Positions 5,951-53,218 of a DNA stretch of 64,000 nucleotides are shown here, in pieces. The notes under the pieces are model-generated. The model saw only the letters and a program-made list of their open reading frames with translations. It ran no database searches and was not told where the DNA came from. Origin of the DNA: Mobula birostris (taxonomy: Eukaryota); contig NC_092374.1 in the NCBI RefSeq assembly GCF_030028105.1, positions 179,941,487-180,005,486 of the forward strand. Direction: 5' to 3'. Position 1 is the stretch's first letter; each line of letters starts with the position of its first letter. The translations under genes were made by a program, and so were the position numbers.

Positions 5951-5967
5951 CCTTTATTACCACTCAC

Positions 5968-9129: not shown

Positions 9130-9240
9130 AGTCGCCAGTCGGCCATCTTTGCTTTTGGCAAGGGCCGCTGTCTCTTATGGAGTATGCTTGTATCCGCCAT
9201 CTTTATTGTGGGCAGAGGCGCCAGTCACAAAGATGGCGTG
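9130..9240 (+). promoter_or_regulatory. CpG-island promoter/5' UTR of the plus-strand gene with three YY1-type motifs
   Basis: GGCCATCTTT 9141-9150, CCGCCATCTTT 9194-9204 and AAAGATGGCG 9229-9238, the last overlapping the ATG. Confidence 0.6.
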
Positions 9241-9420
9241 CGCTGGGCCGACGGATGGAGCGGTTAGCGGGCGGGCTGAGGCCGCGGCTCCGGAGTGGCG
9301 ACTGCCGCCTCGGGAGCGCTCGCTGATGGATATCGGCGACCAGCTTCACCGCTGGAATCGCGTGAAGAGCCAGCTGAATTTGCAGAGCGACGAGGCGATG
9401 GCCCGGACCCTGCTGGATGC
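9233..9420 (+). CDS. Uncharacterised tandem-module gene, exon 1 (A1)
   Basis: Kozak aagATGg in CpG island; MACAGPTDG...LMDIGDQLHRWNRVKSQLNLQSDEAMARTLLD(A); donor gc|gtgagt, phase 2. Confidence 0.85.
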
Positions 9421-10272
9421 GTGAGTGTAGGGAGAAGGAGAGGGGAGGGCTGGAGTTGGTGGATGGGGTGGAGGAGGCGGTGGGGAGGAATGGGAGAGGG
9501 AAAAGGGTGGGATGGAGTGGGCGGAGGAAAGGGAGGGGGTTGGGTAGGGAATAGGGAGGGAATGGACGGGGATGTGGGCGGGTTCAGAGTAGAGAGAGGG
9601 AGGCGGTGGGCAGAGAGGGATGAGGCTGAAGGAGGGGTGGTGTGTGGGGAGCAGTGTGGAATAGGTGGGCAGGAGTGAGGGATGGCGGGAGGGAAATGGC
9701 GAGTGGATTATAGAGGGTGAGAGTGGAATGGGGAATGGGGAGGGAGCGTCTGAGAGATTGAATGAAGTTGAGGAATGAAGGTGGACTGAGTGGGATGGAT
9801 GGAGGAAGGGGGGGTGGGGTGGACTGGAGTGACGGAAATAGGCTCCACCACTTCAGTGTTTTATTTTACTGAGGCAGTGGAGATTTGAGAAAATGAGTTT
9901 GAGAGGGTGGGTGTGGGAAATAGTGGGGTGGGTGTGTAACCACTGAAGGGTTTCCAGTGTCCCATGAGCATCTATCAGCAGGAAGGCCCAGGGATGCACG
10001 TCAGGAAGTGTGGGTCATCTGATCCTTGGTTTGCGGACACACCTTAACCTCACAGAGACGGGTTGTGAAGCATTTCACCTCTCGGTTAAACTGAAGCCTC
10101 GGACTTTCTTCAGCCCTGCGTTCCGTCCACATCTAACTCTCCATACCCCTAGGACCATTTATGGGTTCATTTATCCCCCTAGAACCAGTTATGGGTGCCA
10201 CACATAAATGAAGTGGCCCCTGGGCCCTCTTCTCTCAGGGAGCAGGAACTAACTGAAGTCTTCTTACTCCAG

Positions 10273-10373
10273 GTTTGTAAAGATCCACATGAGCCACGCC
10301 AGCCCTAGCCAGAACGAGCTTGAAGCCTCTTGCGCTGAAGAAGTTGTGGTGACTCATGCTGCCCTTGGGAAAG
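10273..10373 (+). CDS. Tandem-module gene, exon 2 (B1)
   Basis: ttcttactccag| ... aag|gtgggc; 101 nt, phase 2 to 1; FVKIHMSHASPSQNELEASCAEEVVVTHAALGK; paralogous to 22125-22222. Confidence 0.75.
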
Positions 10374-10619
10374 GTGGGCCTTACGGAAAGCATTGAAAAG
10401 TGTTCAACAGGACTTGGTGAATCTTCTCTGCACACTCTCCAGAGCAATCACCTCTTTTCTATTGTGTCCACGCACTCCACATTCCTTCCACTCCAGCCCA
10501 CCACTCCATTCATTCCTATTTTCACCCCAAACTTCCCCCCCTCCATCCTTCAAACCCAGTTCTTTGCCCTCCTCACTCTCCTCAACTAGAGGGAAAAGAA
10601 GTCCGGCTTATCTAATCTC

Positions 10620-11650
10620 TGCCCGTAAGTGAAATCCTCCAGTCCAAGCAGCATCTCCTGGACTAGAAGTGAATTTCCTCTGCAGAGCAATTTCATCTTT
10701 TCTATAGCATGATGCCTAGAAATGCATAAGAATTCCAGAGGAACTCAGCAGGCCAGGCAGCATTTTGTGTGTGTTGTTTGGGTTTCCAGCATCTGCAGAT
10801 TTTCTTTTGTTTGTCACAGAATTCCAGGTTCAATCCAACCAATGTTTTATAAAGTTGTAGCATGATGTCCAGCTCTTTTGTTCTCTGCCACGATTGATGA
10901 GGGCAGGCATCCTGTTTGCCGCCTTTGCCGCCTTGAACACTTGTGCTGCCACTTTCAAAGATCTACGGACATGTACCTCACAGTGCTTCTTTTCATCTTT
11001 ACTTGCCCTCTTCAAGCTCAGCATGTTCATACACCTTGGAAACGGACTCTACAGCCCACCGTTGGCCAAGATGCCAATCTAACCTAGTCCCAATTGCACT
11101 TGTTTCTCCCATATCCCTCAGCCTTTCCTATCCATGTACCTGTCCTAGTGTCCTTTAAATGTTGCTAATGTACCTGCTTCAGCCATTCTGGCTGCTAATT
11201 CTATGTGTAGACCACACTCTGGGTGAAAAGGTTGCCCCTCAGGTTTCTATTAAATCTCTCCCCTCTCACCTTAAACCTGTGCCCCCTGATTCCCCCATCC
11301 TGGGGAGAAAAAAATCTGTGGATGATCCGCAGGATATGCCCTCATGATTTTTACACCTGTATGTCATCTCTCCTTTTCCTATGCTCCAATGAATAAAGCT
11401 TCATAGTGATCTTCTCGGACCCCTGGTAAATCTTTTCTGCACTTTTTCCAGCAGGTGACCAAAACTGAATACGGTATTCTGAATGCGACTTATTAGTGTC
11501 TTATATAACTACTGCAAAATGTCCCAACTCGATGCCTTGACTGATGAAGGCCAGCATGCCTGATACCTTTATATGCTCCCACTTTCAGGGAACCATGTAC
11601 TCCAAGGTCTCTCTGTTCTAAAACACTCCCCACGGCCTTACAGTTCACTG
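10620..11650 (-). mobile_element. Degenerate CR1 fragments with a short Penelope-terminus insertion (10739-10817)
   Basis: CR1 C-terminal remnants (ALINRG.E.KS); the insertion is flanked by a 10-bp direct repeat agaattccag (10729-10738 and 10818-10827). Confidence 0.65.
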
Positions 11651-13464
11651 TTCAAGTCCTAGACTGATTTGAATCCCCAAAATGCAAAGCTTTGCATTAT
11701 CTGAAATGAACAACATTTGCCTTACCCAGATGATCAAGATCTCCCTGTAATTTTTGATAACTGTCCACAACACTAACTGTTTAACTGGTATCCACAACCT
11801 CACTACCCTTACCATGTATATTCTCTTCCGACTAGTTTACATAAATAACAAGCAACAGTGAGTCCAGCATCTGAGGCGCATCACAGTCACAAGTCTCCAC
11901 TCCGATAAGCAACCTCTACCTTCAGCTTCATACCATCGAGCCGTTATGTAGGTGGCTGTTCCTGGATCTCATGTGATCTAACCTTCTAGACCAGCCGAGA
12001 ACACAGATGTAGATTGTGTGATTGCAAGACTGACCCAGAGCCTCCAGCTGTGCATCACTTTAACCGTCCACTGGACATCCACTCGAGATCTCCCTATCCT
12101 CCAGTGTTCCAAGGAAGGCCAACGTAGGTTTGAGCAGCATCACCTCATCTTCTGTCTGGGCATCGTTCAGCCTTAGCAACTCATTGAGCTATAGAGTGAT
12201 AAAGCACAGAAACATACCCTTTGGCTCACTGTATCCATGTTGAATTTCTACACTAATCCCATCTGCCGGCATTAACTGAGCGCCTGTATAAAGGCCTCTG
12301 AAGTGTGTCTGAGCAATTGCACCTGATTTCATCACCACGTCTGGCAGCATATTTCCAGGTGTCAATCACTCTCTAAGTAAAAAGAGCTTGCGCCATCAGT
12401 ACATTCAGCAATTTCAAATAACCAGGCTGCTGTGCTTTTGCTGGAGATTTTAGTTTCAGCGTGTTGCTTTGTTTCTTTTCCATCGCCAAATGCCGGAATT
12501 AGATTTAATTGTTACCTTGGCGACCTTGATTTGCAGCTTGTCACATTTCCTCTTTGCTTTCCCCTCTATCTCTCCTTTTGCAGCGTAAGACATGCTCACT
12601 TTCTCAGTTTTGAAGGGACTTGGACCCCGTTTCTCCCTCCTTGGATGCTGCCTGACTTGCTGAGTGTTTCAGGCATTCTTTTTTAATGCCAGCAAAGTAT
12701 TTGGCTGAGGATTAGTATCAGTAAGAGTTCCTCTTATTCTCAGGATGGGAGCTTGAGCTCTTGTACAGAGGTACAGCGACAGACTTGTATACCATACACA
12801 CAGTACAGACGAATTGACATAGTACAAGGTAAAGCAGTAACGGAATAAAATGATGCAGTATGTGGTGACATGCCAGTAATTCCTTAGCTTCTAAGAAAGT
12901 AGAGACACTGGCGGGCCTTCTTCGTGACTGCTTCCATGTGCAATATCTTTGTATCTTCATTTTTCCATAGCCTGTAATTCCCTGATTTTTCAAGAGCTGG
13001 TCTACCTCCTCCTTAAATACCCCCACTGATCGAGTCTCCACAATTCTCCCAGACTGAGAGATTCGTCCTCTCATCCCCTCTGAGGGAAGAAGCGGGTGAC
13101 TCTTATCCTATTGGAATTATTTTTGTTGACATAATGCTCAGCTTTAAGTATACCCAGTGACGTGGCCTCCGCAGTTGCCCGTAGCAATGAATTGCACAGA
13201 TCCACCACCCTTTCTGGCTAAAGAAATTTCTTCTCACTTCCGTTTGCATGTGTCTTTTGCACGTTGGTTGCTTGTCTGTCTTCATTGTGTGCGGGTTTTC
13301 ATTGATTCTGTTGTTTCTTTGTATTTGCCGTGCGTGCCCTCAAGAGAGTGAATCTCAGGAAAGTACTTGGTGACATTATGGATGTTGATAATTAATTTAC
13401 TTTGAACTTTGAAGTGAATTGCATTTGGCTGATGGGTTCCTATTTGCCTGTTCTCATCCCCAAG

Positions 13465-14241: not shown

Positions 14242-14242
<1 letters not shown>

Positions 14243-14312
<70 letters not shown>

Positions 14313-14322
14313 ACACACACAC
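14243..14322. repeat. (CA)n microsatellite expanded inside a Penelope-terminus fold-back element (about 14205-14470)
   Basis: About 40 CA units at the caacacacacaaaa position of the element. Confidence 0.9.
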
Positions 14323-15722: not shown

Positions 15723-15971
15723 AAGTGCCAGGCATGGAACAGCTGGTGGCTGTCCTGTTTTTCCAAAGGTTGGATCTGATAACGCTGGGCAGACGGCTGA
15801 GCGGGTGCCACTGGCGAGGCTGCCCTTGCCGCTGGAAGAAGCCAGCCGAGATGTGCGGAGGCGACAGAGACACAAGATCTTCATCGGTGACCAGCGAGTT
15901 CGTTGGAATTCTCTGAAGACTCGTCTCGAGGTGAGGAGCGACGAGGAAATGGCCAAGATTCTGCTGGACGT
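15723..15971 (+). CDS. Tandem-module gene, exon 4 (A2)
   Basis: ttgtttttccag| ... gt|gtaagt; 249 nt, phase 2 to 2; ...RRRQRHKIFIGDQRVRWNSLKTRLEVRSDEEMAKILLD(V); this frame is absent from the ORF track. Confidence 0.85.
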
Positions 15972-16810: not shown

Positions 16811-17439
16811 CTCCTTAAGCCCCTGAAACCATATCTGAATGCGGAATGAAGGTAACAGCTGCAGAGAAAGTGCAGTGAATACTGTAACGAGCCATGCAAC
16901 ATGGAAACAGGCCCTTTGGCCCATCTGGTCCATGCTGACTAAGATGCCCATCCAAGCTAGTCCCACTTTCCCAGGTTTGATCTCTATCTCTGTAAAACCT
17001 CTCCTATCCATGTATCTGTCCAAGTACCTTATAAAATATATGCCTGCTCATTGGTGCTTCTGAACCCTGGGTAAAAAACTGTGTGCATTCACCTTATCTA
17101 TGCTCCTCATGATTTTATACACTTCTATGAGGTCACCTTTCACTCTCTTATGCCCTGGTGAATGAAGTCTGCTCAATTTCCTTCCAGAATTGCTTGCCTT
17201 GAGTCCCAACAATATCCTCATAATTCAGCATGGAAGTTGGCCATTCAACCCATCTACTCCATGCCAACCAGACGCCCATCTACAGTCGTCCCATTTGCCT
17301 GTATTTAGCCAAGCATCTCTAAGCCTGTCCTATCTGTGTACCTATCCCACTGGCATTGAAATTTAAAATGAAAATGGATTTCTAGATGTAGGTAATCAAG
17401 AGGTGTAGAATCATACAACACAGAAACATAAAAGCCAAA

Positions 17440-19025
17440 GGGAGGCCATAAATAGGTCTAAAATTAGTGGAAAGTCTGAGGATTGGGAAGCTTGTAAAAA
17501 AAAAAAACAACAGAAGGCAACTGAAAAGTCATTAAGATGGTAAAGATGAAATACAAAAGTAGGCTAGCTAATAAAATTAAAGAGGATATCAAGAGTTTCT
17601 TCAGATACATAAAGTGTAAAAGAGAGGCAAAGATGGATATCGGACTGCTGGAAAATGATGCTGGAGAGATAGTAATGGGGGATGAATTGAATAAGTATTT
17701 TGCATCAGTCTTCACTGTGGAAGGCACTAGCAGTATGGTGGAAATCCCAGGTGTGAGGAGTCGTGAAGTTTGTGAAGTTACCATTACTAGGGAGAAGGTT
17801 CTTGGGGGAACTGAATGGTCTGAAGGTAGATGAGTCGCCTGGATCAGCTGGTGTATAGCCCAGGGATCTGAAAGAGGAGGCTCAAAGATTGTGGAGACAT
17901 TAGCAATGGTCTTTCAGGAATCATTACATTCTGGAATGATTCTGCAAGACTGGAAAATTGCAAATGTCACTCCAGTCTTCAAGAAGGGAAAGAAGCAGTA
18001 GAAAGGAAATTATCGGCCAGTTGGTTTGCTCTCAGTGGTTGGGAAGATGGAGTTGATTGTTGTGGATGTGGTTTCGAGGTACATGATAAAAAAGACCATA
18101 GTCGGCATGGTTTCCTCAAGGAAAATCTTGCCTGACAAATCTGTTGGAATTATTTGAAGAAATAACAAGCAGGATAGATAAAAGAGATTCGGTTGATGTT
18201 GTGTACTTGGATTTTTAGATGGCCTTTGACAACCTGCCACATATGAAGCTGCTTAACAAGCAACGAGTCCATGGTATTACAGGGAACATTCTAGCATGGA
18301 TAAAACAGTGGCCGATTGGCAGGAGGCAAAGAGTGGGAATAAAGGGAGCCTTTTCTGGTTGGCAGCCGGTGACTAGTGGTGTTCCACAGAGGTCTGTATT
18401 GGGCCTGATACTTTTTACATTATATGTCGGTGATTTGGATGATGGAATTGATGGCTTTGTTGCAAAGTTTACAGATGATATGAAGATGGGTGGAGGGGCA
18501 AATAGTTTTGAGGAAGTAGAGAGGCTACAGAAGGACTTAGATTAGGAGAATGGGCAAATACGTGGCAGATGGAATAGTGCCGGGAAGTGTATGGTCATGC
18601 ACTTTGGTAGAAGAAATGAAAGGAGTGAAAGGCCTTGAGAGAATGAATGTGGAGAAAAAGCTTTTCAGGATGTATATTGTATACATTTCTCTGATATTAA
18701 ATGTATCTTTGAAACCTTTGAAAGGATGTTTCCTATGGTGGGAGAGTCTAAGACCAGAGGACACAGCCTCAGAATAGAGAGGCATCCTTTTAGGATGGAG
18801 ATGATGAGGAATTTCTTTAGCCAGAGAGCAGTGAATCTGTGGAATTTGTTGACGCAGACAGCTGTGGAAGCCAAGTCTTTATATTTAAGGCAGAGGCTGA
18901 TAGATTCTTGATTGGTCAGGGCATGAAGGGATATGAGGGAGGAGGAGGTAGGAAAAATGGATCGGCCATGATTAAATGATGGAGCAGACTCAATGGGCCA
19001 AATGGCCTAATTCTTCTATATCTTT
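17440..19025 (+). mobile_element. CR1 LINE ORF2, degenerate
   Basis: KSFFRYIK.KR, ELNKYFASVFTVE, AFDNLPH, VTSGVPQ.SVLG, KF.DD.K motifs with frameshifts; CR1 3' tail. Confidence 0.9.
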
Positions 19026-22124: not shown

Positions 22125-22222
22125 CTTTATAGAAAATCAGATGAATCAGCCAGGGCCGAGCTGTGATTTCCTGGAAGCTGCTCCTGACGAGAGAGCAGCT
22201 ATCACTTGCGACACAGTCACAG
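22125..22222 (+). CDS. Tandem-module gene, exon 5 (B2)
   Basis: ttctttaattttctag| ... cag|gtttgt; 98 nt, phase 2 to 1; FIENQMNQPGPSCDFLEAAPDERAAITCDTVT aligns with B1 (F....M....PS...LEA.......T). Confidence 0.8.
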
Positions 22223-24422: not shown

Positions 24423-24501
24423 AACAAGATGATTTGGACAGCTTCCCCTCGTCTCAGTCAGCAGGCTCGGAATCGACAGTCACCCTGTCACATCCTAGCA
24501 G
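24423..24501 (+). CDS. Tandem-module gene, exon 6 (C2)
   Basis: ttcttcccag| ... cag|gtacgg; 79 nt, phase 1 to 2; (E)QDDLDSFPSSQSAGSESTVTLSHPS; paralogue of 43849-43930. Confidence 0.8.
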
Positions 24502-25569
24502 GTACGGTACTTTATTCCTCAGTATGTGAACATCATCAGTTATTGTTGATCCCAAATTTCCCTTCTTCACTTGTCTCAAACTGCTACAATCCTTCCAGCG
24601 AAGGTGCTGTTGCGCAGGCGTTTCGACCAGGAGAGAGGTTCTGCAGGTTGTGGTTTCCTTATAGGACCTCAAAACAACCCAAAAAATAGTCAATGTAGGT
24701 GTGAGGTATGAGTTGGCAACGATCTGTGGAAATCTCTGCCCAGAGAAGCAATGGAAGCTGCTCTCTAAATGTACTTAAAGACACAGCTAGATAGGTCTTT
24801 GCATTTGGGAAATTAAGGGCTATGGAGAAATGACAGATAGGTGGAGCTGTTCCCACACCTAGACGAGCCAGGATCTTATTGAATGAAGGAGTATGCTTGA
24901 CAGACCACATAGCCAGCTCCTGCTCCAATTACTTATGTTCTTATGACAGATTGGTGTGTTTCAGTGAAAGGAAATTTATGTTTGAGGATAAAGACAGGGA
25001 CTGAAAATCTATATATTCCTTTTTTTTTGGTTCATAGAGCAATGCAGGGACAGGTCCTATAGCCCCCAATGTCTGCCTTGGACATGGTGCTGCATTAAAC
25101 TAAATCTCTTCTGCCTACACATAACCCATTCCCTTCAAATACATGTAGTTGTCACTCTCTTAAACGTCTCTACTGTATCTGCTTCCACCCTGGCAGCTCA
25201 TTCCAGGCACCACCACTGTGAAATAATTTTTTAAAAATGCCCTGCACAATTCTTACAAACTTTCCTCCTCCCTTAAATTGCAGCATCCTACTATTTGACA
25301 TAACCTGGGAGAAGATCCCGATTCTCCACCCAGTGTATGCCAGCCATACTTCTATCAGACACACAGAGATAAAAGAAAGAAACATGACTAGGCAAGAAAG
25401 TGAAAGTTTGAATTAGATTTAAAGAGGAATCACAGGGTTCTACAACTTGGAAACAGGTCCATCGCTCCAACTTGTTCATGCTGACCAAGATGTTTGTTGG
25501 AGCTAGTTCCTTAGCTCCTTTTTTGGCCCATATCCCTCTAAATCTTTCAAAAATCATTGGACTGTGGTG

Positions 25570-26910
25570 TAGTGCCAGAGGACTGGAAAATTGCGAATGT
25601 CACTCCACTCTTAAGCGAGGAGGGCAGCAGAAAGGAAATTATAGACCAGTTAGCCTGACCTCAGTGGTTGGGAAGATGTTGCAGTCAATTGTTAAGGATG
25701 AGTTTATGGAGTACTTGGTGACATGGAGCAAGATAGGACAAAATCAGCATGGTTTCCTTAAAGGAAAACCTGTTGGAATTCTTTGAGGAGGTTACAAGTA
25801 GGATAGATAAAGGGGATGCAGTGGATGTTGCATATTTGGACTTTCAGAAGGCCTTTGACAAGATGCCACACATGAGGCTGCTTACCAAGTTAAGCTCATG
25901 GGATTACAGGAAAGTTACTGGCATGGCTAGAACATTGGCTGATTTTTAGGAGGCAGCAAGTGGAAATAAAAGGATCCTTTTCTGGTTGGTTGCCAGTGAT
26001 TAGTGGTGTGCTTTAGGGGCCAGTGTTGAGACTGCTTTTTATGCTGTATATCAATGATTTAGATGATGGAATAGATGACTTTGTTGCCAAATTTGCAGAT
26101 GATACAAAGATTGGTGGAGCAGTAGGTAGGCTGTAGAAGGACTTAGACGGACTAGGAGAATGGGCAAGAAGTGGCAGATGAAATACAATGTTCGAAAAAG
26201 TGCAGACTATTTTCCAAAACTCTTGAGATGCAAAGGGATTTGGGAGTCCTTGTGCAGAACACCTTAAAGCTTAACTTGCATGTTTAGTTGGTGGTGAGGA
26301 GGCCAAATGCAATGTTAGCATTCATTTCAAGAGGTCTAGAATACACGAACAGGGATGCTGAGGCTTTATAAGGCACTGGTGAGGCATCACTTTGAGTATT
26401 GTGAACAGTTTTGGGCTCCTCATCTAAGAAAAGATGAGCTGGCATTGGAGAGGGTTCAGAGGAGGTTCACAAAGATGATTCTGGGAATGAAAGGGTTATC
26501 ATACGAGGAACATTTGATAGCTCTGGGTCTGTATTTGCTGGAACTTAGAAGAAAGGGGGGATCTCATTGAAACCTTGCAAATGTTGAAAGGCCTAGACAG
26601 AGAAGGTGTAGAAAGAATGTTTCCCATGGTGGGGGGGGGGGGGGTCTAGGACAAGAGGGCACACTCTCAGGATAGAAGAGTGTCCATTAAAAACAGATGC
26701 AGAGAAATTTCTTTAGCCAGAGGGTCGTGAATTTATGGAATTTGTTACCACAGAGAGCTGTGGGGGGGCAGGTTGTTGGATGTATTTAAGGCAGAGATTG
26801 GTAGGTTCTTGATTGGGCGTGACGTGAAAGGTTGCAAGGAGAAGGCCGGGGAGTGGGATTGAGGAGGGGAGAAAAGGATCAGCCATGATTGCTCCTATGT
26901 CTTACGGCAT
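25570..26910 (+). mobile_element. CR1 LINE ORF2, degenerate
   Basis: NYRPVSLTSVVGK, YLDFQKAFDKMPH, LYKALVR.H.EYC.QFWAPHLRKD. Confidence 0.9.
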
Positions 26911-35730: not shown

Positions 35731-35988
35731 CATCGACAGTTTCGAGGAGGACGCTGACGCCGACCTCTTCAGCGGCACGGACTCTCCGTCAGGGAGCAGC
35801 AGCAGGCTTCCTGCTGCAGCACACAGAAGAGCTAGAACCCTGCTGGCTAATCACGAGTTGCAGTCAGAGAAAGAGGAGGGAGAATGGGAGCTGGGCAGCA
35901 AGAACCACAAGTTCAAACGCTGTACGTTCAGCAGCAAAGTGTCGGATCAGAGGAATAACGAGATGGAATGGATAGAGTCTTCAAAGGC
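35731..35988 (+). CDS. Tandem-module gene, exon 7 (A3, module degenerate)
   Basis: tcttcctttacag| ... gc|gtgagt; 258 nt, phase 2 to 2; (S)IDSFEEDADADLFSG...WELGSKNHKFKRCTFSSKVSDQRNNEMEWIESSK(A). Confidence 0.8.
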
Positions 35989-36914: not shown

Positions 36915-39900
36915 AGACCGTAAGATATCGGGAGGAGAATTAGGCCATTCAGCCCTTTGAGTCTGCTCTTGTCATTCCATCACAGCTGATCTGTTATCCC
37001 TTTCAACCCCTTTCTCCTGCTTTCTCCCTGTAACCTTTGATGCCCCGACTAATCAACAACCTAGCAGCCTCCACTTTATACTCTGTGACTTGGCCTCCAC
37101 AGCCCCCTGTGGCAATGAATTCCACAGATTCATTACCTACTGGCCAAAGAAATTCCCTCCTCATCTGTGTTCCAAATCGGTATTTCTCTAGTCTGAGGCT
37201 GTACCCTCTGGTGTTAGACTCACCCACTACAGAAAACATCCTCCCTACATCCACTCTATCCAGACTTTTCAATATTCGATAGGTTTTGGTGGGATCAACC
37301 GTCGTTCTTCTGAACTCCAGCGAGTACAGGCCCAGAGGCATCAAACACTCCTCGTAGATTAACCCTTTCATTCCTGTAATAAATCTTGTGAACTTCCTCT
37401 GGACCCTCTCCACTGCCAGTATGCCTTTCAGATAAGGGGTGCAAACCCCAAGTGAGGCCTCACCAGTGCCTTAGAAAGCCTCACAATTACGTCCTTGCTG
37501 TTATATTCTAGTCCTCTCAAAAAGAATGCTAACGTTGCATTTGCCTTTTTACCACTGTATTAATCTACAAGGTAACCTTCAGGGAATCCTGCGCAAGGAT
37601 TCCCAAGTCCCTTTGCACCTCTGATTTTTGAATTTTCTCTGTTTAGAAGATGTTCTACCCCTTTATTCCTTCTACCGAAGTGCATGACCATACACTTCCC
37701 CACACTATATTCCATCCGCCGCTGCTTTGCCCGTTCTCCCAAACGGACTCAGTCCATCTGCAGACTCCCTACTTCCTCAACCCTACTCAACCCTCCTCCT
37801 ATCTTTATATCATCTCTGGACTTTGCCACAAAAAAATCAATTCCATTATCCAAATCATTAATATATGATGTGAAAAAAAGCAGTCACAGTATTGACCTCT
37901 GTAGAACACCACTAGTCATCAGAGGATAACCAGAAAAGGCCCCCTTTATTCCCACTCTGCCTATCTTCTATATATGCTAGTATCTTTACTGTAATACCAT
38001 TGGGCTTTTAGCTTGTTTAGCAGCCTCATGTGCGGCACCTTGTCAAAGGTCTTCTGAAAATACAAGTAAACCACATCCTTTGTGTATCCTGCCTGTTACT
38101 TCCTCCAAGTGCTCCCCCAACCTACATCGGGTATCACCGATATACAAGGAGCCACACTGGGAGCACTGAACACAGTAAATCACCCCAACGGACTTACAGG
38201 TGAAGTATCACCTCACCTGGAAGGACTGTTTAGGATCCTGAATGGTAGTGAGGTAGGAGGTGTAGGGACAGGTGTAGCACTTGTTCTGCTTGCAAGGATA
38301 AGTGCCAGGAGGGAGATCAGTGGGGAGGGACAAATGAATAAGGGAGCCACGTAGGGAGCGATCCCTGTGGAAAGCAGAAAGTAGGGAGGAGAGAAAGATG
38401 ATTATGATGATTATGAAGACACGTAGTCCTGTTTTATTGTCATTTAGTAATGCATGCATTAAGAAATGATACATTATTTCCTCGGGTGTGATATCACAAA
38501 ACACAGGACAAACCAAGACTGAAAAAACTGACAAAACCACATAATTATAACATATAGTTACAAACAGTGTAACAATACCATAACTTGATGAAGAAGTCCG
38601 TGAGCATAGTAAAGTTCAAAGTTTCTCAAATGTCCCACATCTCATGCAGACGGGAGAAGGAAGAAAAACTCCCTGCCAGACCCGACCATGATCCGACTCT
38701 GAGTCATCCAAAAACTTCGAGCTCTGATCAGCTCTCCAACACCGAGTACTGAGCGCCATCACTATCCGAACGATTTGACCTCCTTCTCGGTCACCAAAAG
38801 CAGGCAAGGCCGGGGATTTTGAGGCCTACCCTCCAAAAGATTCACGACCATACAGTAACGACAGCAGCGAATGGGCGTTTCAGAAATTTCTCCAGATGTT
38901 CCTCTGTGCTTTCACGTCCATTCTCCATCAAATCAGAATTGTCCACGGCCCCTATTAAGATGTGCTTGGTGGTGGGATCCCGTTAGAGGTGGTGGAAGTT
39001 TCGGAGAATTATGTGCTGGACGTGGGGGTTGGTGGGGGGTAGGTGAGGACAAGACGAACCCTAACCCTGGTAGGGTGGTGGGAAGATGAGGCCACCATCA
39101 ATGCTCCCCTCAACCACACACCATCAACACTGCTCTCAAACGCATCTCTTTCATTTCATGCACGTCTGCTCTTACCCCATCTGCCTGCCACCCTACCAGG
39201 GACAGGGTTCCTCTTATCCTCACCTTCCACCCCACCAGCCTCCACGTCCAGCACATAATTCTCCGAAATTCCGCCACCTCCAATGGGATCCCACCACTAC
39301 ACTTCCTGCTTTCCGTAGGGATCGCTCCCTACGTGACTCCCTTGTCCATTGGGCCCTCCGTACAGATCTCACTCTGACCACTTCACTGAGCATCTATGCT
39401 CTGACTGCCAGAACAAGCAAGATCACCCAGTGGCTGTCCATTTCAAGTCCACTTCCCATTCCCATTCCGATATATCCATTCATGGCCTCCTCCACTACCG
39501 TGAAGAAGCCACACTTAAGGTTGGAGAAACAACATCTTGTATTTCGTTTGAGTAGCCTCCAAGCTGATGGTATGAACATTGATTTCTCAAACTTCCAGCG
39601 ATACCCCCACCCCCCTTCACCATTTACCACCTCCTTTTCTGTCTCTCACCTTATCTCCTTGTCTGCCCATCGCCTCCCTCTGGTGCTCCTCCCCCTTTTC
39701 CTTTCTTCCATGGCCTGTCTCTTTCATCAATCAACTTCCAAGCTCTTCACTTCATCCCTCCCCCTTCAGGTTTTACCTATCACCTTGTGTTTCTCCCACC
39801 CCTCCCCCACCTCAATCTACTCCTCAGCTTTTTTTCTCCAGTCCTGCTGAAAGGTTTTGGCCGGAAACGTCAATTGTACTTTTTTCCATGTGTGTTGCTC

Positions 39901-40326: not shown

Positions 40327-40427
40327 ACTTGCCAAGGAGCCAGAGCGGCAACACTGTCTCGATAGGGAAATCATTGCTGTCTGCATCGGGGAAGGGGGTG
40401 TCCCAACCTGTGCTACAATCAAGAAAG
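40327..40427 (+). CDS. Tandem-module gene, exon 8 (B3)
   Basis: tttgtattttctag| ... aag|gtagga; 101 nt (same length as B1), phase 2 to 1; LAKEPERQHCLDREIIAVCIGEGGVPTCATIKK(E). Confidence 0.75.
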
Positions 40428-40982: not shown

Positions 40983-43400
40983 CATAAGACCATAAGACAA
41001 AGGAGCAGAAGTAGACCATTCGGCCCATCGAGTCTGCTCCGCCATTTTATCATGAGCTGATCCATTTTCTCCTATTTAGTCCCACTCCCCTGCCTTCTCA
41101 CCATAACCTTTGATGCCCTGGCTACTCAGATACCTATCAATCTCTGCCTTAAATACACCCAATGACTTGGCCTGCACTGCTGCCCGTGGCAACAAATTCC
41201 ATAGATTCACCACCCTCTGACTAAAAAAATTTCTTCGCATTTCTGTTCTGAAAGGGCGCCCTTCAATCCATAAGTCATGCCCTCTCGTACTGGACTCCCC
41301 CGTCATGGGAAACAACTTTGCCACATCCACTCTGTCCATGCCTTTTAACATTCGAAATGTTTTTATGAGGTCTCCCCTCATTCTTCTAAACTCCAAGGAA
41401 TACAGTCCAAGAGCGGACAAACGTTCCTCATATGTTAACCCTCTCATTCCCGGAATCATTCTAGTGAATCTTCTCTGTACCCTCTCCAACGTCAGCACAT
41501 CCTTTCTTAAATAAGGAGACCAAAACTGCCCACAGTACTCCAAGTGAAGTCTCACCAGCGCCTTATAGAGCCTCAACATCACATCCCTGCTCCTATACTC
41601 TATTCCTCTAGAAATGAGCGCCAACATTGCATTCGCCTTCTTCACTACTGACTCAGCCTGGAGGTTAACTTTAAGGGTATCCTGTACGAGGACTCCCAAG
41701 TCCCGATGCATCTCAGAACTTTGAATTCTTTCCCCATTTAAATAATAGTCTGCTCGTTTATTTTTTCTGCCAAAGTGCATAACCATACACTTTCCAACAT
41801 TGTATTTCATTTGCCACTTCTCTGCCCATTCTTCCAATCTATCCAAGTCTCTGCAGACTCTCCGTTTCCTCAGCACTACCGGCCCCTCCACCTATCTTCG
41901 TATCATCAGCAAACTTAGCCACAAAGCCATCTATTCCATAATCCAAATCATTGATGTACAACGTAAAAAGAAGCGGCCCCAACACTGCTCCCTGCGGAAT
42001 ACCACTGGTAACCGGCAGCCAACCAAAATAGGATCCCTTTATTCCCACTCTCTGTTTCCTGCCAATCAGCCAACGCTCTATCCATGTATGTAACTTTCCT
42101 GTAATTCCATGGGCTCTTATCTTGTTAAGTAGCCTCATGTGTGGCACCTTGTCAAAGGCCTTCTGAAAATCCAAATATACAACATCCACTGCATCTCCCT
42201 TGTCTAGCCTACTGGTAATTTCCTCAAAAAATTGTAATAGGTTTGTCAGGCAGGATTTTCCTTTAAGGAATCCATGCTGAGTTCTGCCTATCTTGTCATA
42301 TGCCTCCAGGTACTCTGTAACCTCATCCTTGACAATCGACTCCAACAACTTCCCAACCACGGATGTCAAGCTAACAGGTCTATAATTTCCTTTTTGCTTC
42401 CTTGCCCCCTTCTTAAATAGCGGAGTGACATTTGCAATCTTCCAGTCCTCCGGAAGCATGCCAGAATCTATCGACTTTTGAAAGATCATCGCTAATGCCT
42501 CCACAATCTCCACAGCTACTTCCTTCAGAACACGAGGGTGCATTCCATCTGGTCCGGGAGATTTATCTACCTTTAGCCTATTCAGCTTCCTGAGTACTTT
42601 CTCTGTCGTAATTGTGACTGCACACACTTCTCTTCCCTGCCACCCTTGAGTGTCCGGTATACTGCTGTCTTTCTCAGTGAAGACTGATGCAAAATACTTG
42701 TTCAGTTCCTCTGCCATCTCCTCATTTCCCATTACAATTTCTCCAGCATCATTTTCTATTGGTCCTATATCTACTCTCACCTGTCTTTTACTCTTTATAT
42801 ACTTGAAAAAGCTTTTAGTATCCTCTTCGATATTATTTGCTAGCTTCCTTTCATAGTTAATCTTTTCTCTCTTAATGACTTTCTTGGTTTCCTTTTGTAA
42901 GGTTTTAAAAACTTCCCAATCCTCTCTCTTCCCACTAATTTTTGCTTCCTTGTATGCCCTCTCTTTTGCTTTAACTTTGGCTTTGACTTGTCAACCACGG
43001 TTGCATCCTTTTTCCACTCGAAAATTTCTTCTTTTTTGGAATATACCTGTCTTGCACATTCCTCATTTCTCGCATAAACTCCAGCCACTGCTGCTCTGCT
43101 GTCTTTCCCGCCAGTGTCTCTTTCCAGTCAACTTTGGCCAGTTCCTCTCTCATGCCACTGTAATTTCCTTTACTCCACTGAAATACCGACACATCAGATT
43201 TCGGCTTCTCTTTTTCTAATTTCACAGTGAACTCAGTCATGTTATGATCACTGCCTCCTAAGGGTTCCTTCAACTCAATCTCTCCAATCACCTCCAGTTC
43301 ATTACACAATACCCAACCTAGTACAGCCGATCCCCTAGTGTGCTCAACAACAAGCTGTGCTAAAAAGCCATCTCGCAGACATTCTACAAATTCTCTCTCT
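40983..43400 (-). mobile_element. Young CR1 LINE, 5'-truncated, ORF2 nearly intact
   Basis: ORFs 42971-43309, 41839-42780 and 41076-41891 join through a few frameshifts: SDHN, NYRPVSLTS, YLDFQKAFDKVPH, SGIPQGAVLGP, KFADDTK; (tcttatgg)-type tail. Confidence 0.95.
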
Positions 43401-43848: not shown

Positions 43849-43930
43849 AGCAAGAGGAGTTGTACAGTCTGCCTTCGCCAGCGGCGTCTGCCTTCTCTGG
43901 GACCACGGTGACCCTGTCACATCCGAGCAG
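43849..43930 (+). CDS. Tandem-module gene, exon 9 (C3)
   Basis: cttgtcttcccgcag| ... cag|gtgcgg; 82 nt, phase 1 to 2; (E)QEELYSLPSPAASAFSGTTVTLSHPS. Confidence 0.82.
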
Positions 43931-46183: not shown

Positions 46184-47794
46184 CAATGCCTTTAAAAAGT
46201 ATTCACCCACCTTGGAAGTTTTCATGTTTTATTGTTTTACAACATTGAAACACAGTGGATTTAATTTGGCTCTTTTGACAGTGATCAACAGAAAAGACGT
46301 GTCAAAGTGAAAACAAATTTCTACAAATTTATTCCAATTATTAAACACAAAATAATTGATTGCATATTCACTCACCTCATTCAATTCAGTATTTAGTAGG
46401 TGTGCCTTTGGCAACAATTACAGACTTAAGTCTGTGTGAATAGGTCTCTATTAGTCTTGCACATCTGGACACTGCATGTAATTCTCATCCTTCTTTATAA
46501 AACTGATCAGACTCTGTCAGATTGCATGGAGTTGTTAGTGAACAGCTGTTTTCAAGTCCAACCACAGATTCTTAGTTGGATTGAGGTGTGGCTTAGCCAC
46601 TCCAGGACACTAACTTAGTTGTTTTGAAGCCATTCCTGAGAAACTTCGGCTTCATGCTTGGGTTCATTATCTTGCTGGAAAACAAATCTTCTCCCAAGTG
46701 GCAGTTGTCTTGTAGACTGCATCACGTTTTCTTCCAGGATCTCCCTGTATTTTGCTGCATTCATTTTACCCTCTACCTTCACAAGCCTTCCAGGGCCTGC
46801 TGCAGTGAAGCATCCCCACAGCATAATGCGGCACCACCATGCTTCACAGTAGGGAAGGTGTGTTTTTGAGTATGTGTTGTGTTGGGCCTACACCAAACAA
46901 TGGCATTTAGTCTGATGGTCAAAAAGCTCAATTTTGGTTTCATCAGGACATAGAACCATCTTCCAACTGACTTCAGAGTCTCCCACATGCCTTCTGGCAA
47001 ACCCTAGCTGAGATTTCATGTTTTTTTTTCCAACAGTGGCTTTCTCTTTGCCAATCTCCCATAAAGCTGAAACTGATGAAGCGTCTGGGCAACAGTTGTA
47101 TGTGCAGTCTTTCCCACCTCAGCCACTGAAGCTTGTAATTCCTCCAGAGTTGTCATAGGTCTGTTGGTGGCCTCCCTCACTAGTCCCCTTCTTTCATGGT
47201 CACTCAGTTGTTTGAGGACAGCCTGCTCTAAGCAGATTTACAGCTGTGCCATATTCTTTAAATTTATTGATGATTAACTTAACTGTACTCCAAGAGATAT
47301 TCAGTGACTTGGAGATTTTCTTTTCTCTATCTCCTGACTTGTGCTTTTCAATAACCTTTTCGCAGAGTTGCTTTGAGTGTTCTTTTGCTTTCATTGTGTA
47401 GTTTTTGCCAGGATACTGACTCACCAGCAGCTGGACCTTCCAGATACAGGTGTATTTTTACTACACTCAATTGAAACACCTTGACTGCACATAGATCTCC
47501 AAAAACAGATCTCTATTTAACTAATTATGTGACTTCTAAAACCAATTTGCTGCACCAGTGCTGATTTGGTGTGTCATGTTAAAGGGGCTGAATATTTGTG
47601 CAATCAACTATTTTGTGTTTTATATTTGTAATTAATTTAGATCATTTTGTAGAGATTGCTTTTTACTTTGACAGAAAAGTCTTTTTCTGTTGATCAGTGT
47701 CAAAAAAGCCAAATTAAATTCACTGTGATTCAATGTTGCTAAACAATAGAACATGAAAACTGCCAAGGCGGGTGAATACTTTTTATAGGCACTG
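46184..47794 (-). mobile_element. Full-length Tc1-family transposon (Passport-like), transposase inactivated
   Basis: TA duplications at 46182-83 and 47795-96; long (about 200 bp) TIRs starting ca[ag]tgcct[ta]taaaaagtattcacc; minus-strand MKAKEHSKQLCEKVIEKHKSG...WSTVK.II.KFKEYG, DETKIELF, TVKHGG, MLWGCF, FQQDNEPKH; frameshifts present. Confidence 0.92.
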
Positions 47795-49084
47795 TATGCT
47801 CCTGTGAGGAGGACAGTCAAGGATGGCAAGGTTTGGGGAGCTTGGATGATGAGAGATGTTGCAAATGTATTCAAGGAAGTACATGTAAACTGTAGGAAGT
47901 TGAAATTGGATGGGGTCCTTGAGAAATGTGAAGGAAGTAGAAAGGAACTTAAATGGACAATTAGGAGCATTCAAAGGAGCCATGTTAGAGAGAACTCCAA
48001 GGTATTTTAGACTCAAGACATTCTGCAGATGTTCTAAATATTGAGCAACACACACAGAATGCTGGAGGAACTCAACGGGTCAGGTAATGTCTATGGCAGC
48101 AATCATCAGTTGATGTTTTGAGCTGAGACCCGACATCAGGACTGGAAAGGAAGGGGGCAGAAGACTGAATAAGGAGTTGGGGAGAGTGCAAACTGGCAGG
48201 TGAGGGGGAAGGTGAGTGGTTTGGGGAGGGCGTAATGTGAGAATCAGTGGGTGTGCTAGAAGAAGTAAAGGGCTGCAGAAGGAGGAATCTGATTAGAGAG
48301 GACAATGGCCCATGGAGTGAAAAAAGAGGAGGTGGGGGACCAGAAGGAGGTGATGAGCACGTTATGAGAATAGGGAAGAAGAAGAGAAAGGGTGAGAGGG
48401 CCTCCAGGATGGGGTACATCAAGAAAGCAGAGGTGGAAGGAAGGGGAAACAGACAGGAATGGATGCTGGAAGTTAGAGAAAGCATTTAGACGTATATTAA
48501 AAACAAGAGGACAATCACAGAGAGGGTAACTAGTGATAGGTGGTCACCCACTAGTTTCTAATGTATGTCTAGTGCAGCTACCTCTCAACGACAAAGGAGG
48601 GAATGTAAGTTTGGAATTAGATGAAACAGTTGGGGTGCTAAAGAAGTACTTCACTCCAGTATTCACCAAGGAGTAGGGCATGGAGGACAGTGAAGCCAAG
48701 AGGGGTATGCTGATATTCCAAGGCATGTTCATAACACGAATGTGGTGTTGCTGGGTCTGGTGAAGATAAATCACTGGGGCCTGGTGGGATATACCCCAGG
48801 CAATTAGGAGGCGAGAGAGGAAATTATTTGGGCCTTGACAGAGATCATTATATCTGTTTTAGCTACAGGGGAGATGCCGGAGAACTGTGGATTAGCAATT
48901 GTTCTTTGGCTTATGTTGTACAATAGATACATATCAGGGAGTTATTACCCCGGTGAATTATACCTCAGTGGTAGGGAAAATATTGGAGAAGATCCTTGTT
49001 ATGCTACTGGTCATCAACACTTCCACCATTGCTTCCTTAATTACATTGTGCACCCTGTCTAAAGGTGTCCTCTCTGTGTCTTAG

Positions 49085-49336
49085 TGATGTGAGCCTTGAA
49101 GAGGAGTGCTTGGTCAACACAACAGTGGCATCAGAGAGTGAGACCGAGGGGACAGAGATGGTGACCAACCGAAGAAAGAGACCTGCCTTCCCAGATGAAG
49201 ACTCCAAGGGCAGCAATGTGCGGTGGGATCGTCCCGGGCTGTTGGACATTGGAGCAGAGATTGATCGTTGGAACTTTGTGAAGGGTTACTTGAAGCTAAA
49301 GACCGACGAAGAGATGGCTGGGGTGTTACTGGACTT
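49085..49336 (+). CDS. Tandem-module gene, exon 10 (A4)
   Basis: ctctctgtgtcttag| ... tt|gtgaga; 252 nt, phase 2 to 2; (S)DVSLEEECL...NRRKRP...LLDIGAEIDRWNFVKGYLKLKTDEEMAGVLLD(L). Confidence 0.85.
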
Positions 49337-50144
49337 GTGAGAACCCACTCATCGTTCTGTCCTTCAGGTTCTAATTAGGAGGATGCTACCAGGACTCTGG
49401 CCTGAGTTATAGGAAGGGAGTGGGCAGGCTCGGACAATATTCCTCATGTCCGTGGTCTACTGGCTGGTTGAAGCTGGCTGTTTCCCCCACTCGTGCTTTG
49501 CGCAAGGTATGAAAGTCAAGCCAGTGCAGTGGGTAGAGCTGCTGCTTCACAGTGCCAGAGACCTGGGATTGATCCTGACTTTGGGTGCTGTCTTTGTGGA
49601 GTTCGTATGATCCCCTTGTGACCATGTGGGCTCTCCCGCAATGCCGTAAAGTACAGCAGGGAATCAGGCCCTTTGTCCCAACTCATCTGTACTGACCAAG
49701 TTGCCTGACTAACCTTGTCCATTTCCCTGTGTTTGGCCCATATCCTTCTAAACCTTTCCTATCCATGTATCTGTCCAAATGTCTTTTAGACGTTGTAATT
49801 GTACTGACCTCTTACTCTTCCTTTGGTACCTCGTTCCATATATCCACTACCCTTTGTGAATACATTCCTCTTGGATCCTTTTGACATCTTTCCCCTCTCA
49901 CCCTAAACCCATCCCCTCTTTTTGAGGGACTAATTACCTGGGAAAAAGACTAACAATCCACCTATCTGTCCCCCTCATGATTTTACATATACGGGTCTCT
50001 CTTCAACCTCCTACGTTCCAAGGGAAAATATCCCAGCAAGTCCAGTCCATCCTTATAACACAATACCACCCCCCCCCGCCCCCCAGTGCTGATAACATCC
50101 TTGTAAATACATTTTCTGTCCAATTTAATGACATTCTTTCTTTA

Positions 50145-50430
50145 AAATTACTACTACATCGACTCAGGCCTGGGGGGGGCCGGCGTCAGGCACGATGATG
50201 GACTCTCCACTTCTCCCTCTCCCTCATCAGTGTGTTCAGTTCATCTACATTAGCCGCGCCGCTGTCTTCTAGGAGTGTGTTGACCATAGTCTTGGGAGGG
50301 CGCCCAGGGTTCATCCTCCCATGCTTGGGCTCCCATACCCATATGATGACTAGGCTGGCAGGTAGCTCAGGGTGGCGTAGACAGTGCCCCGCTAGTTGCA
50401 GTCTTCTCACCTCGATTTTAGTGGTGAATG
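50145..50430 (-). mobile_element. RTE-clade LINE 3' end
   Basis: RRLQLAGHCLRHPE...WEPKHGR.NPGRP.KT....L.ED...M..R.KWR followed by a tagtagtaa tail. Confidence 0.85.
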
Positions 50431-50663
50431 CAGTACGTTAAATGTGGCGTTACCAATGTCATGTACAGCTCTGGTTTCTTCCCACATTCCTGAGATGTAC
50501 AATTGTTTGATTAATTGGCTGTTATAAATTGCCCCCCAGTGTGTGGGTGTGGGGAGATTAAAATGGGATTAGTGTAAATGAGTGTTTAATGTTCAGAGTA
50601 AAATTTGTCCTTTTCTGTGCTCTATGACGCTCGTGAACATTTGGTGTTATCCTCTATTTCCAG

Positions 50664-50733
50664 ATACATGAAGACACATGCAAGTCCACCCCATCCACTG
50701 ACTTCATTTCCTGTGTTTGTGAAGAAAGTGTGA
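50664..50733 (+). CDS. Tandem-module gene, exon 11 (B4), coding to TGA
   Basis: cctctatttccag|; phase 2 gives (L)YMKTHASPPHPLTSFPVFVKKV*; the Y matches F in B1/B2; strong donor aag|gtcagt at 50754; the end of the CDS is ambiguous. Confidence 0.6.
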
Positions 50734-51514
50734 GAGGCTTCCCCCAGTTGTAAGGTCAGTTCCAACTCCTGGTTTTAATTAAGTCTTTTCCCATTTATCC
50801 TGGAGTGAATTGTTATGTTGATCAGCCACTGTTGGAGTATGTTCCCTATCTGTTGACTGTTCTCCTCCCCCCCCACCGCCCACTTCTGTCCTGAGAACCA
50901 CCGGAAGGTTCTGTTGCCGGGGAGCTGCTTGATACAGTGTATACCGGTAATACAACGGGGCTATTCTAGACCTTACATTGGGATCATCAACCAGCCTTTT
51001 ACACTGAGCTTATACTATTCTCCCCATATTCCAACAACTCCCTGCAGATTCTACCACTCTGCTGCCTGTACCATGTAGGTTACAGTGGCCAGTCAACCCA
51101 CTGAGCCACACATCATTGGAATGTGGAGGTAACCGAGCACCCAGGGGAATTCAACGTGGACACAGCGAGAACATGCAAACCCTACACGCAGCAGCTTTGA
51201 GGCAGCAGCTCCGCCCATTGCACCACTTTGCTGCCTACACATCTTACGGCAAGCATTGTCTTGAGGTTATATCAACGCTCCCTGCAAGTGTTTTCCTTTG
51301 GAGACACCAAGAGACTGCAAATGCTGGAATTTGGAGCAGCACAATCTGCCGGAGGAACTCAGTATTTGTGGGGTGGGGGAGGAGGAATTGTTGGCGATCC
51401 TGCAGCAGTTCCTCTACCACCTGGGGTGTTGGCCACAGTGTGTACACTCAGGGAGTGGGTGGGTGTGGCTGTGTGTGTGCTGCTAAGGGTTAATCCAGCT
51501 GCGCTTCCTCTCAG

Positions 51515-51645
51515 GTCGAGCAGAGCGGAGCAGCGCGGTGTTTGCAGCCACGAATGGTTAGCACGGCCGGCACCAGTGAGCCAGGAACTGCCTGCTTTTG
51601 CGGCCCAGGATCAGAGTTGGGAGCTAGCACCTCGCACCCAGGCAG
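51515..51645 (+). other. Probable exon 12 (C4) of the tandem-module gene, coding status uncertain
   Basis: cttcctctcag| ... cag|gtactg; the phase-0 frame ends GSELGASTSHPG(R), aligning without gaps to C2 GSESTVTLSHPS. Confidence 0.5.
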
Positions 51646-52495
51646 GTACTGCTTTGCAGAGCTTCACATTATACAGCACAGGCACGGGCTCTTAGCGTCT
51701 GACCTCGTCCATGCCAGCCACGCCTACACTGATTCCATTTGCTTCAATTAAGCCTGTTCAGAGGCTCCTAATCTTTTTTATGCCATGGACCCCTACCATT
51801 AACTGAGGGATCTGTGGACCCCAAGTTGGGTACCCCTGCTCTAGAATCACAGAGTGATGCAACACAGAAATAGGCACCCTGGCCCAATTTGTCCATGCTG
51901 AACAAAATGTCCACCAAGCTAGTCCCATTTACTTATGTTTGGTCCATGTTCCTATAGACATTTCTTATCCATGTACCTGCCTGAATGTCTTTTAAACATT
52001 ATCATTAAGACCATAAGACATAGGAGCAGAACTGGCTGTTCAGCCCATCTAGTCTGCTCTTCCATTTCATCTTGACTGATTCATTATCCCTCTCAACCCC
52101 ATTCTCGTGCCTTCTCCTAGTAACCTTTGATCTGCCTCAACTGCTTCCTCTGGAGTCTGATTCCACGTACCCATCTCTGCCTGAGGATGTCCTCAAATCC
52201 TTAAGCTTATGCCCTCTTGTTTCTGTTTCCCTTCCCTAGGCTCCTTTGCTCCTTTTCTATGCAAGTACGTACCCAGTGTCCTTCAAACATTATTTTGTAT
52301 CTACCTCCACCACCTCCTCTGGCGGCTTGTTCCCATTCAGATTAGTTCATTGTCAGCTTCAGGGTGTAATGAAATCCCTTGTTCATGGAGTAAATGGCAT
52401 ACTTGGTAATAATAAATACAGTGATGAGCATAAAACAGCAGAAAGGTACAAAGACTGTAATTCATTGTAATGTCTGACACCTCTGATCTTGTATA

Positions 52496-52790
52496 AAGGC
52501 ATCCGTTAGTCTTGCGAGACCATGGATCTGCACCTGGAAAGTCTTCACTCTCCTGGGCAAGGTTGTATGGAAGACCAGCAGCTGCCCATGCTGCAAGTCT
52601 CCCCTCTCCACCACTCCAATGTTGTCCAAGGGAAGGGCATTAGGACCCATACAGCTTGGCACCAGTGTCATCGCAGAGCAATGTGTGATTAAGTGCCTTG
52701 CTCAAGGACACAACACGTTCCCTCAGCTGGGGCTCGAACTCATGACCTCAGGTCGCCAGTCCAATGCCTTAACCACTTGGCGATGTGCCC
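52496..52790 (-). mobile_element. tRNA-derived SINE with RTE-type tail
   Basis: Minus strand A box gccaagtggttaaggc, B box gagttcgagccc, then gtgtccttgagcaaggcact and a tail shared with 57660-57850. Confidence 0.7.
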
Positions 52791-53115
52791 ACACTCTGAT
52801 CTTTTAAGTTTCACCTTAAACGTGTCAGTCCTTTGTGTTCTGGACACTGCAACCTTTTGGGGGGGGGGGGGAGAAAAAGTATCTCATCTTTTCATCTCCT
52901 AATTTTGTAAAATTACTCCCTACACTCTAGAGATAATAAACCCGCCCTTATCAGATTTTAACTACAGCCCTCCATTGCAGGTAACGTCCCAGTGGATCCT
53001 GCACACTCCCTACAGCTACCACATCTTTCCAGTGGTGTGGTGAGTGGAACTGTATCTGGTGCTCTGAGGTAGCTGGTGTGAGTGAGAGCCGTTCTGAATC
53101 CTCGTTCTGTTGCAG

Positions 53116-53218
53116 GTCCTGGATGAGGAAGCCTGAGACCAGCGTATGTCCCTCACCACCTCCAGTGGCTCAGGATATCCCGAGCAGACGTGCTGCAGCA
53201 ACTTTGATCGCGATGTGA
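53116..53218 (+). other. Possible terminal exon of the tandem-module gene
   Basis: Good acceptor gttctgttgcag|; GC-richer block; the phase-2 frame reads SWMRKPETSVCPSPPPVAQDIPSRRAAATLIAM*, followed by AT-rich sequence. Confidence 0.35.

Follow-up and report, generated by a model that had tools for sequence, protein, structure and literature searches.

An elasmobranch gene with three copies of a two-helix module also found in Kolobok-type transposases and zinc-finger proteins

Structure, exon duplication and conservation of the gene

The window analysed here, 64,000 nucleotides of Mobula birostris contig NC_092374.1 (positions 179,941,487 to 180,005,486), contains on its forward strand a gene of 11 exons that splices to an open coding sequence (CDS) of 1620 nt, encoding 539 amino acids followed by TGA. 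It is a real, already predicted and uncharacterised elasmobranch gene made by known processes. An earlier note, made from the sequence of the window alone, had described it as an unnamed gene built from repeated exon cassettes. What that interpretation missed is a repeated domain, a module of ~40 amino acids that is common to Kolobok-type transposases and animal zinc-finger proteins, and that stands three times in a protein with no transposase core and no zinc fingers.

The ten junctions of the earlier note, together with its CDS, exon number and exon phases, were reproduced. All ten introns follow GT-AG with pyrimidine-rich acceptors (10/10), and the exons measure, from 5' to 3', 188/101/142/249/98/79/258/101/82/252 nt, plus a last exon of 70 nt. 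Named after their A-B-C order, they begin with A1 (9233-9420), which has the ATG at 9233 and from 9323 the first module copy, D1, completed in B1 (10273-10373). B1 encodes the end of helix 2 of D1 and, in sharks, additionally a strand-like motif, V-L-Q-V-C-I; C1 (13465-13606) is basic. A2 (15723-15971) has symmetric phases (2-2) and carries D2 from 15874, with RRRQRH directly before it; the end of its helix 2 is encoded by B2 (22125-22222). C2 (24423-24501) contains a Ser/Thr motif, T-V-T-L-S-H-P-S, at 24467-24499. A3 (35731-35988) has an acidic N-terminal half and no detectable module. B3 (40327-40427) encodes I-I-A-V-C-I, similar to a SUMO-interacting motif (SIM), at 40370-40387 and the start of a SUMO-consensus site, I-K-K-E, which is completed across the intron by C3 (43849-43930); C3 also has a second T-V-T-L-S-H-P-S at 43896-43928. 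A4 (49085-49336) contains the basic cluster RRKRP and, from 49239, the copy D4, which ends in the coding part of B4 (50664-50733) with the stop TGA at 50731-50733. The basic clusters listed earlier (KKGRSEESKHKGRRSR, RRRQRHK, RRKRP) and the IKKE site are all present in the protein.

The gene had been drawn as far as 53218. The CDS stops at 50733, and the stop at 53218 belongs to a last exon that might be used alternatively (53116-53218, forward strand). The terminal Val-stop (50728-50736) reads GT/GTGAGAG, a possible phase-2 donor after 50729, which would join in frame to the acceptor at 53116 and give 33 extra residues. Val or Leu ends 9 of 10 orthologue C-termini at this position, which is what reading through a conserved donor would produce; the alternative exon was used by none of the orthologue C-termini examined. 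The first AATAAA 3' of the stop lies at 52411 and the next at 52935. The proximal promoter (9139-9238, forward strand) lies in a CpG-rich stretch. It contains a pair of direct repeats of 34 nt (71% alike) and three CCATCTT/AAGATGG sites, the last of which runs into the ATG; the rest of the window has just two more copies of their core. We take these sites to be YY1-like.

Four cassettes with paralogy in every exon class had been claimed, and the repeat itself stood, at 3 2/3 cassettes instead of four. In comparisons within the window, the protein scores of A1-A2, A1-A4, A2-A4, B1-B2 and C2-C3 were above 500 of 500 shuffles, the pairs with B4 were borderline (p 0.014-0.038), and A3, B3 and C1 gave no significant pair. 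Profiles of seven orthologues linked B1 with B3 (E 1.4e-5, probability 80%) and weakly linked the N-terminal halves of A3 and A4 (E 4e-4, probability 35%), while C1 had no link to any exon in this comparison. The paralogy therefore holds for A1/A2/A4, B1/B2/B3 and C2/C3, is weak for A3 and B4, and is not detectable between C1 and C2 or C3. The exons A2, A3 and A4 (249/258/252 nt) and the B+C pairs (243/177/183 nt) are all frame-preserving units of phase 2-2. The introns had been said to share only unrelated transposons. The flanks of paralogous exons agreed with this (homology in 0 of 24 pairs at p<0.01), but members of the same repeat families recur many times in the introns (self-blastn of the window gave 127 pairs), for which "independently inserted" is more exact.

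In a tree of the module copies (71 rows, 42 columns), nine shark and ray D2 copies grouped together (99/98), with one long-branch intruder included, and 8 of 11 D4 copies did so as well (89/88). The D1 copies formed no resolved group, and a D1 clade was not rejected (approximately unbiased test, p 0.42). This grouping by position across sharks and rays indicates that the duplications most likely predate the shark-ray split. Together with the phase 2-2 units and the unequal conservation described below, it bears out the earlier view that exons were duplicated within the gene long ago and have been retained by selection.

When the A1/A2/A4 alignment was used to look for homologues, 8 of 2184 candidates were returned, every one from an elasmobranch (Mobula hypostoma, Pristis, Pristiophorus, Carcharodon, Mustelus, Hemiscyllium, Narcine, and Rhinoraja). 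The NCBI model LOC134346714 of M. hypostoma has 539 amino acids, of which 535 are identical and 4 differ. This model and those of Pristis, Narcine, Pristiophorus, Carcharodon, Mustelus, and Hemiscyllium are orthologues that have neither domain nor function annotation, and six other named species of shark and ray have their exons in the same order. Exon A2 is precisely skipped, with C1 joined to B2, in the Narcine model P0007 and the unnamed P0010, which independently supports the C1/A2/B2 boundaries. The orthologue models vary at the N-terminus. Among the 8 proteins returned, the Rhinoraja longicauda model P0008 is a complement C4-like protein whose last ~130 residues correspond to exons C3-A4-B4; it is probably either a fused gene model or the sign of a different neighbour in this skate.

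Protein identity between rays and sharks was 50-78% in the modules and 20-39% in the degenerate C-terminal half of A3, the least conserved part, so that purifying selection on the module is seen at the protein level, in ray-versus-shark identity. The best-kept parts besides the modules are the T-V-T-L-S-H-P-S segments of C2 (73-96% identity) and C3 (59-89%). Two T-[VI]-TLSHPS motifs and a psi-K-x-E site at the B3/C3 border were found in 10 of 10 orthologues checked; the site, which reads IKKE, VKIE, IKIE, IKQE, or IKEE, lies after the hydrophobic SIM-like stretch, in a part of the protein predicted to be disordered. The statement that this is not a named vertebrate gene agrees with the sources, which call it uncharacterised, and with the failure to find a Pfam or PDB match. 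A full-text literature search, with subscription papers, Repbase reports and bioRxiv supplements outside its reach, gave no description of the gene or the module, and six locus tags (five of orthologues and one of Hypanus) returned 0 papers.

The module and its relatives

The repeated unit is a two-helix module formed by the end of A1, A2 or A4 together with the opening residues of the B exon that follows. The protein has the copies D1, D2, and D4 only, and a hidden Markov model of 182 domains found no fourth copy in the window; A3 lost its copy. Pfam gave nothing above the cut-off for 8 single exons, 10 members of the module alignment and four orthologues. Sequence searches of the PDB with four alignments and one transposase-like relative reached a best E of 0.032 over stretches of 14-15 residues, which was rejected, and the ESM Atlas returned three unnamed eukaryote or chordate clusters at 0.88-0.90 and no named cluster. 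Scans of the 539-residue protein for a DDE triad, C/DxxH, an H2CH zinc finger and the C2H2 pattern were negative, and neither THAP, KRAB nor SCAN was found among Pfam families.

A profile of the module matched 222 proteins at E<=1e-3 among 1.84e9 proteins. The counts by class given here cover the 150 matches listed of these 222, six of them orthologues of the gene; P0123 and P0139 had been left out as repeat-driven before counts and alignments were made. Kolobok-type transposase motifs occurred in 7 of the 150 and two or more C2H2 fingers in 9. ZSWIM3_N was present in 7 of 53 scanned matches and FLYWCH in 1 of 53. The named bearers of the module include Ptychodera, Saccostrea, Crassostrea, Apostichopus, and the stingray Hypanus sabinus. 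A homologue search with a deeper profile gave 3 matches of 7999 scored candidates. Against plasmid and phage sequences, one family member had no match at E<=10, and PHROGs gave weak unnamed matches only.

The transposase-like relatives are represented best by P0159 of Crassostrea angulata (759 amino acids), an apparently intact DDE transposase in which an N-terminal module with an RGRK motif and a basic helix is followed by GDGR-x-DSPG, VVTDAH, DIWH, H2CH, and ELENF. Compared by eye, these strings agree with the Kolobok rows aligned in PMC9587614 (supplement 3) and PMC6004289 (supplement 1). P0159 and P0117 both contain the D-D-E, DxxH and H2CH signature strings, again as compared by eye and not by a scored alignment. 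Both are Kol0-like and THAP-less, and share the N-terminal module with the ray gene; the ray gene differs from such Kolobok transposases in lacking DDE, DxxH, H2CH and THAP, and in having three module copies and 10 introns. Five transposase-like relatives matched the window at the module only. The accessible text of PMC6004289 and PMC9587614 describes THAP or accessory domains of Kolobok and not this module; four supplements of PMC9587614 contained none of five motif strings (four taken from the module), and seven supplements of PMC6004289 did not contain "LLDR". P0103 of H. sabinus (LOC132378131) has the module and a Kolobok-type C-terminal part with incomplete catalytic motifs, and groups in the tree with the unnamed P0100 (94/78). 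P0103 and P0100 may represent a Kolobok gene domesticated in cartilaginous fish, whose product would be a candidate partner of the protein studied here. The presence of P0103 in a stingray means that candidate partners exist within the clade.

The wider family has the module after a basic helix, with an RGRP or RGRK motif in 27 of the 150 matches listed. The conserved Arg or Lys of the strand-like stretch was present in 113 of 157 other copies versus 5 of 25 copies of the ray gene, and the median net charge upstream of the module was +7 versus +2; both differences point away from DNA contact by the ray protein. L-L-D-x is the end point of 38 of 144 non-orthologous matches, where the intron of the ray gene falls, which suggests an exon border shared between the gene and the wider family. 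Two other groups were observed. Seven unnamed proteins (P0012, P0015-P0019, P0021) have a ZSWIM3_N/FAR1-like N-terminus and two modules, and form an independent two-module gene family. P0052, P0063, P0073, P0075, P0077, P0087, and others form a tight cluster with near-identical modules, a GRPP motif and a basic helix, which suggests another conserved host gene.

The pattern of the family, R-[IV]-x-[ILV]-G, a helix, x-L-x-[ST]-D and a second helix, resembles a ribbon-helix-helix (RHH) subunit, and by this pattern suggests such a fold for the module. The strand-like stretch has an alternating pattern with only two inward hydrophobic positions. AlphaFold predicted three helix-loop-helix units, at residues 34-47/53-69, 198-211/217-233, and 488-501/507-522, and disorder in the rest, with 420 of 539 residues at a predicted local distance difference test (pLDDT) score <50. 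As in RHH proteins (CopG, ParG, MetJ), a short strand-like motif is followed by two helices, with a basic helix in front in the wider family; in contrast to them, the single-chain models showed no strand and no dimer-like packing, and neither sequences nor profiles were significantly similar. PMC3413123 describes RHH proteins from bacteria and archaea. Forced into a global alignment, the wider family and CopB were collinear. We take CopB and RepA2 to be RHH-like, and when the family profile of 176 rows was scored against 22 CopB/RepA2 sequences, the result was no better than chance (23 of 60 shuffles reached it). One family member had led to RepB-RCR_reg (1/84, E 0.01, basic helix and strand only) and to PRK13702 (1/49, E 0.009); this lead was rejected, with CopB at E 0.21 and 8-51 of 60 shuffles as high across four settings. 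A fold search found no match at E<=0.001 in the pdb or viral library, an absence that says little for models that are open helix pairs. Its best Z was 2.9 (root-mean-square deviation 3.9, 39 aligned) among 48,161 chains, with no RHH entry among the best 50 rows, and covariation over the 176 rows gave no interpretable pattern.

Origin and possible role of the protein

By analogy with SCAND1 and with host-transposase fusions, we tentatively suggest that the product might be a nuclear adaptor or dominant-negative partner that consists of modules only and represses through SUMO-linked motifs. An exon with the N-terminal module of a THAP-less Kolobok-type transposase, or of a zinc-finger gene that had captured the module, would have become the ancestral exon. 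This exon and two linker exons would have undergone tandem duplication before the shark-ray split, and one copy would later have lost its module. The resulting protein, three two-helix modules on disordered linkers, could pair through its modules with each other or with the module in other proteins, either Kolobok transposases (domesticated or active) or zinc-finger factors, and its SUMO-consensus, SIM-like and Ser/Thr motifs could draw in repressive partners. Transfer from transposon to host is the probable direction, and oligomerisation through the module seems somewhat likely. A repressive or dominant-negative role is plausible, though somewhat less likely than not, and the protein may be nuclear, judging from its sequence.

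Several observations weigh against this proposal. AlphaFold gave no strand and no packing between repeats in the full protein (7 sequences, predicted template modelling score (pTM) 0.17), and two separate helix pairs, likewise without strand or packing, in a natural two-module protein (50 sequences, pTM 0.28). The transposase-linked proteins are just 7 of the 150 matches listed, and 100 of these matches are fragments of <160 amino acids without known context. The Kolobok identity of the relatives comes from motif matching and not from an alignment score, with only weak Mutator-like Pfam matches (E 0.017-0.17). In the 71-row tree, the copies of the gene grouped with no Kolobok group, and the transposase-linked rows were scattered (5 changes for 8 rows), so that the tree speaks for neither direction of transfer. 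The basic flank is retained at D2, as is the Arg in some sharks, and the protein may therefore bind DNA after all. The SUMO and SIM labels are assigned by short consensus patterns that often match by chance.

An alternative is that the protein is a sequence-specific DNA-binding factor, in which RHH-like dimer modules read DNA, e.g., the ends of Kolobok or of derived elements, in the manner of host-transposase fusion factors. In P0159 the module occupies the place that the THAP DNA-binding domain has in other Kolobok transposases (PMC6004289), and the family pattern resembles the RHH ribbons KRVNVNFD and KRLTITLS given in the accessible part of PMC3413123. The RRRQRH before D2 would fit as well, and DNA-binding domains make up 76.5% of captured transposase domains in the part of 10.1101/2020.05.07.082677 available. 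On the other hand, D1 and D4 have Leu, Met, Thr or Ala for the conserved Arg, mostly with Asp two positions on; the strand has two inward hydrophobic positions only and was not predicted by AlphaFold; and the comparison of the family profile with CopB/RepA2 was at chance. We consider such a factor rather doubtful.

Equally doubtful is the view that the module is an old protein-interaction domain of a host zinc-finger family, which Kolobok picked up, and that the gene is a zinc-finger gene that lost its fingers, its link to transposons being secondary. Zinc-finger proteins slightly outnumber transposase-like ones among the 150 matches listed (9 versus 7), the Arg-less strand type of D1 and D4, G-L-x-D/N-I-G, also occurs in zinc-finger-type proteins such as P0059, and the tree gives no direction. 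Against this, the apparently intact transposase P0159 bears the module with its RGRK motif and basic helix, and the module is joined to many unrelated DNA-binding domains (C2H2, ZSWIM3_N/FAR1, FLYWCH), as repeated capture would give. The N-termini of vertebrate ZNF692 and ZNF653 may be similar in pattern; a weak search aimed at these genes gave 10 matches of 1147 candidates, with neither gene among them.

A bolder form of our proposal is decidedly unlikely. Here the module would be an animal RHH-like dimerisation and DNA-binding domain, spread by THAP-less Kolobok elements into many zinc-finger genes (possibly including ZNF692 and ZNF653), and the ray gene would be a trivalent decoy of modules only, forming heterodimers with Kolobok transposases and with factors that bear the module and silencing them via SUMO, similar to SCAN/SCAND1 and of independent origin. 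That the gene model is an artefact, assembled from exons that do not belong together or from separate genes, or is what remains of a dead transposon, is very improbable: the fusion in P0008 and the differing N-termini of orthologues would fit it, but the independent 539-residue model, the exons collinear in six other named species, the motif-focused conservation across sharks and rays, the CpG-rich start and the exact exon skipping in two orthologue models argue against it.

The proposed adaptor can be compared with two known systems. In host-transposase fusion genes, a transposase-type domain is spliced into conserved host exons, as would be the case in the ray gene; the P element/Kolobok group supplied 21.3% of such fusions in tetrapods in the accessible part of 10.1101/2020.05.07.082677, and the accessible text of PMC10799480 on fungal Kolobok fusions concerns helicases only. 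The ray gene differs from them in having no attached host domain of a known kind (e.g., KRAB), in the multiplication of the module by exon duplication and in the seeming loss of basic residues. SCAND1, an analogy of function only, is an interaction module known from zinc-finger proteins but produced without fingers, which antagonises a finger-bearing partner, as far as the available part of 10.1101/617753 describes it; unlike SCAND1, the ray protein has no SCAN or KRAB match and has three modules, not one.

The NCBI gene model is already known, as are exon duplication and transposase capture as processes. In the libraries searched, what appears to be new is a conserved domain of ~40 amino acids that has no Pfam model and connects Kolobok-type transposases and animal zinc-finger proteins with a gene of sharks and rays consisting of little else. 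If the module is a dimerisation or DNA-binding part, it would be a candidate for the DNA-recognition part of THAP-less Kolobok elements and would represent a family of effector domains comparable to SCAN. The gene would then also allow host control of a DNA transposon to be tested in cartilaginous fish.

Neighbouring gene and repeats

The neighbouring gene PIGC (1843-6118, reverse strand) lies head-to-head with the gene, 3.1 kb upstream. It was called by a GPI2 match (E 4.5e-11) and has at least three coding exons, 6118-5968, 3589-3520, and 1997-1843 (151/70/155 nt), with canonical splice sites and an open frame. Mammalian PIGC has a single coding exon, and the difference would imply that introns were lost in one lineage or gained in the other. 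Two N gaps (4474-4612 and 5149-5279) lie in a long C/T low-complexity tract of PIGC intron 1, and the open reading frames (ORFs) there are artefacts. Beyond 50800, 121 ORFs of at least 50 amino acids gave one match of the long interspersed nuclear element type, and no host gene was found. Decayed repeats occupy 17431-18625, 25542-26889, 36915-38078, 41049-42972, 8140-8610, 60222-61144, and 46615-46887 in the introns and flanks. They include long fragments of the reverse-transcriptase type (RVT_1 for three ORFs scanned), a DDE_3 fragment and a repeat of ~130 nt with more than 10 copies.

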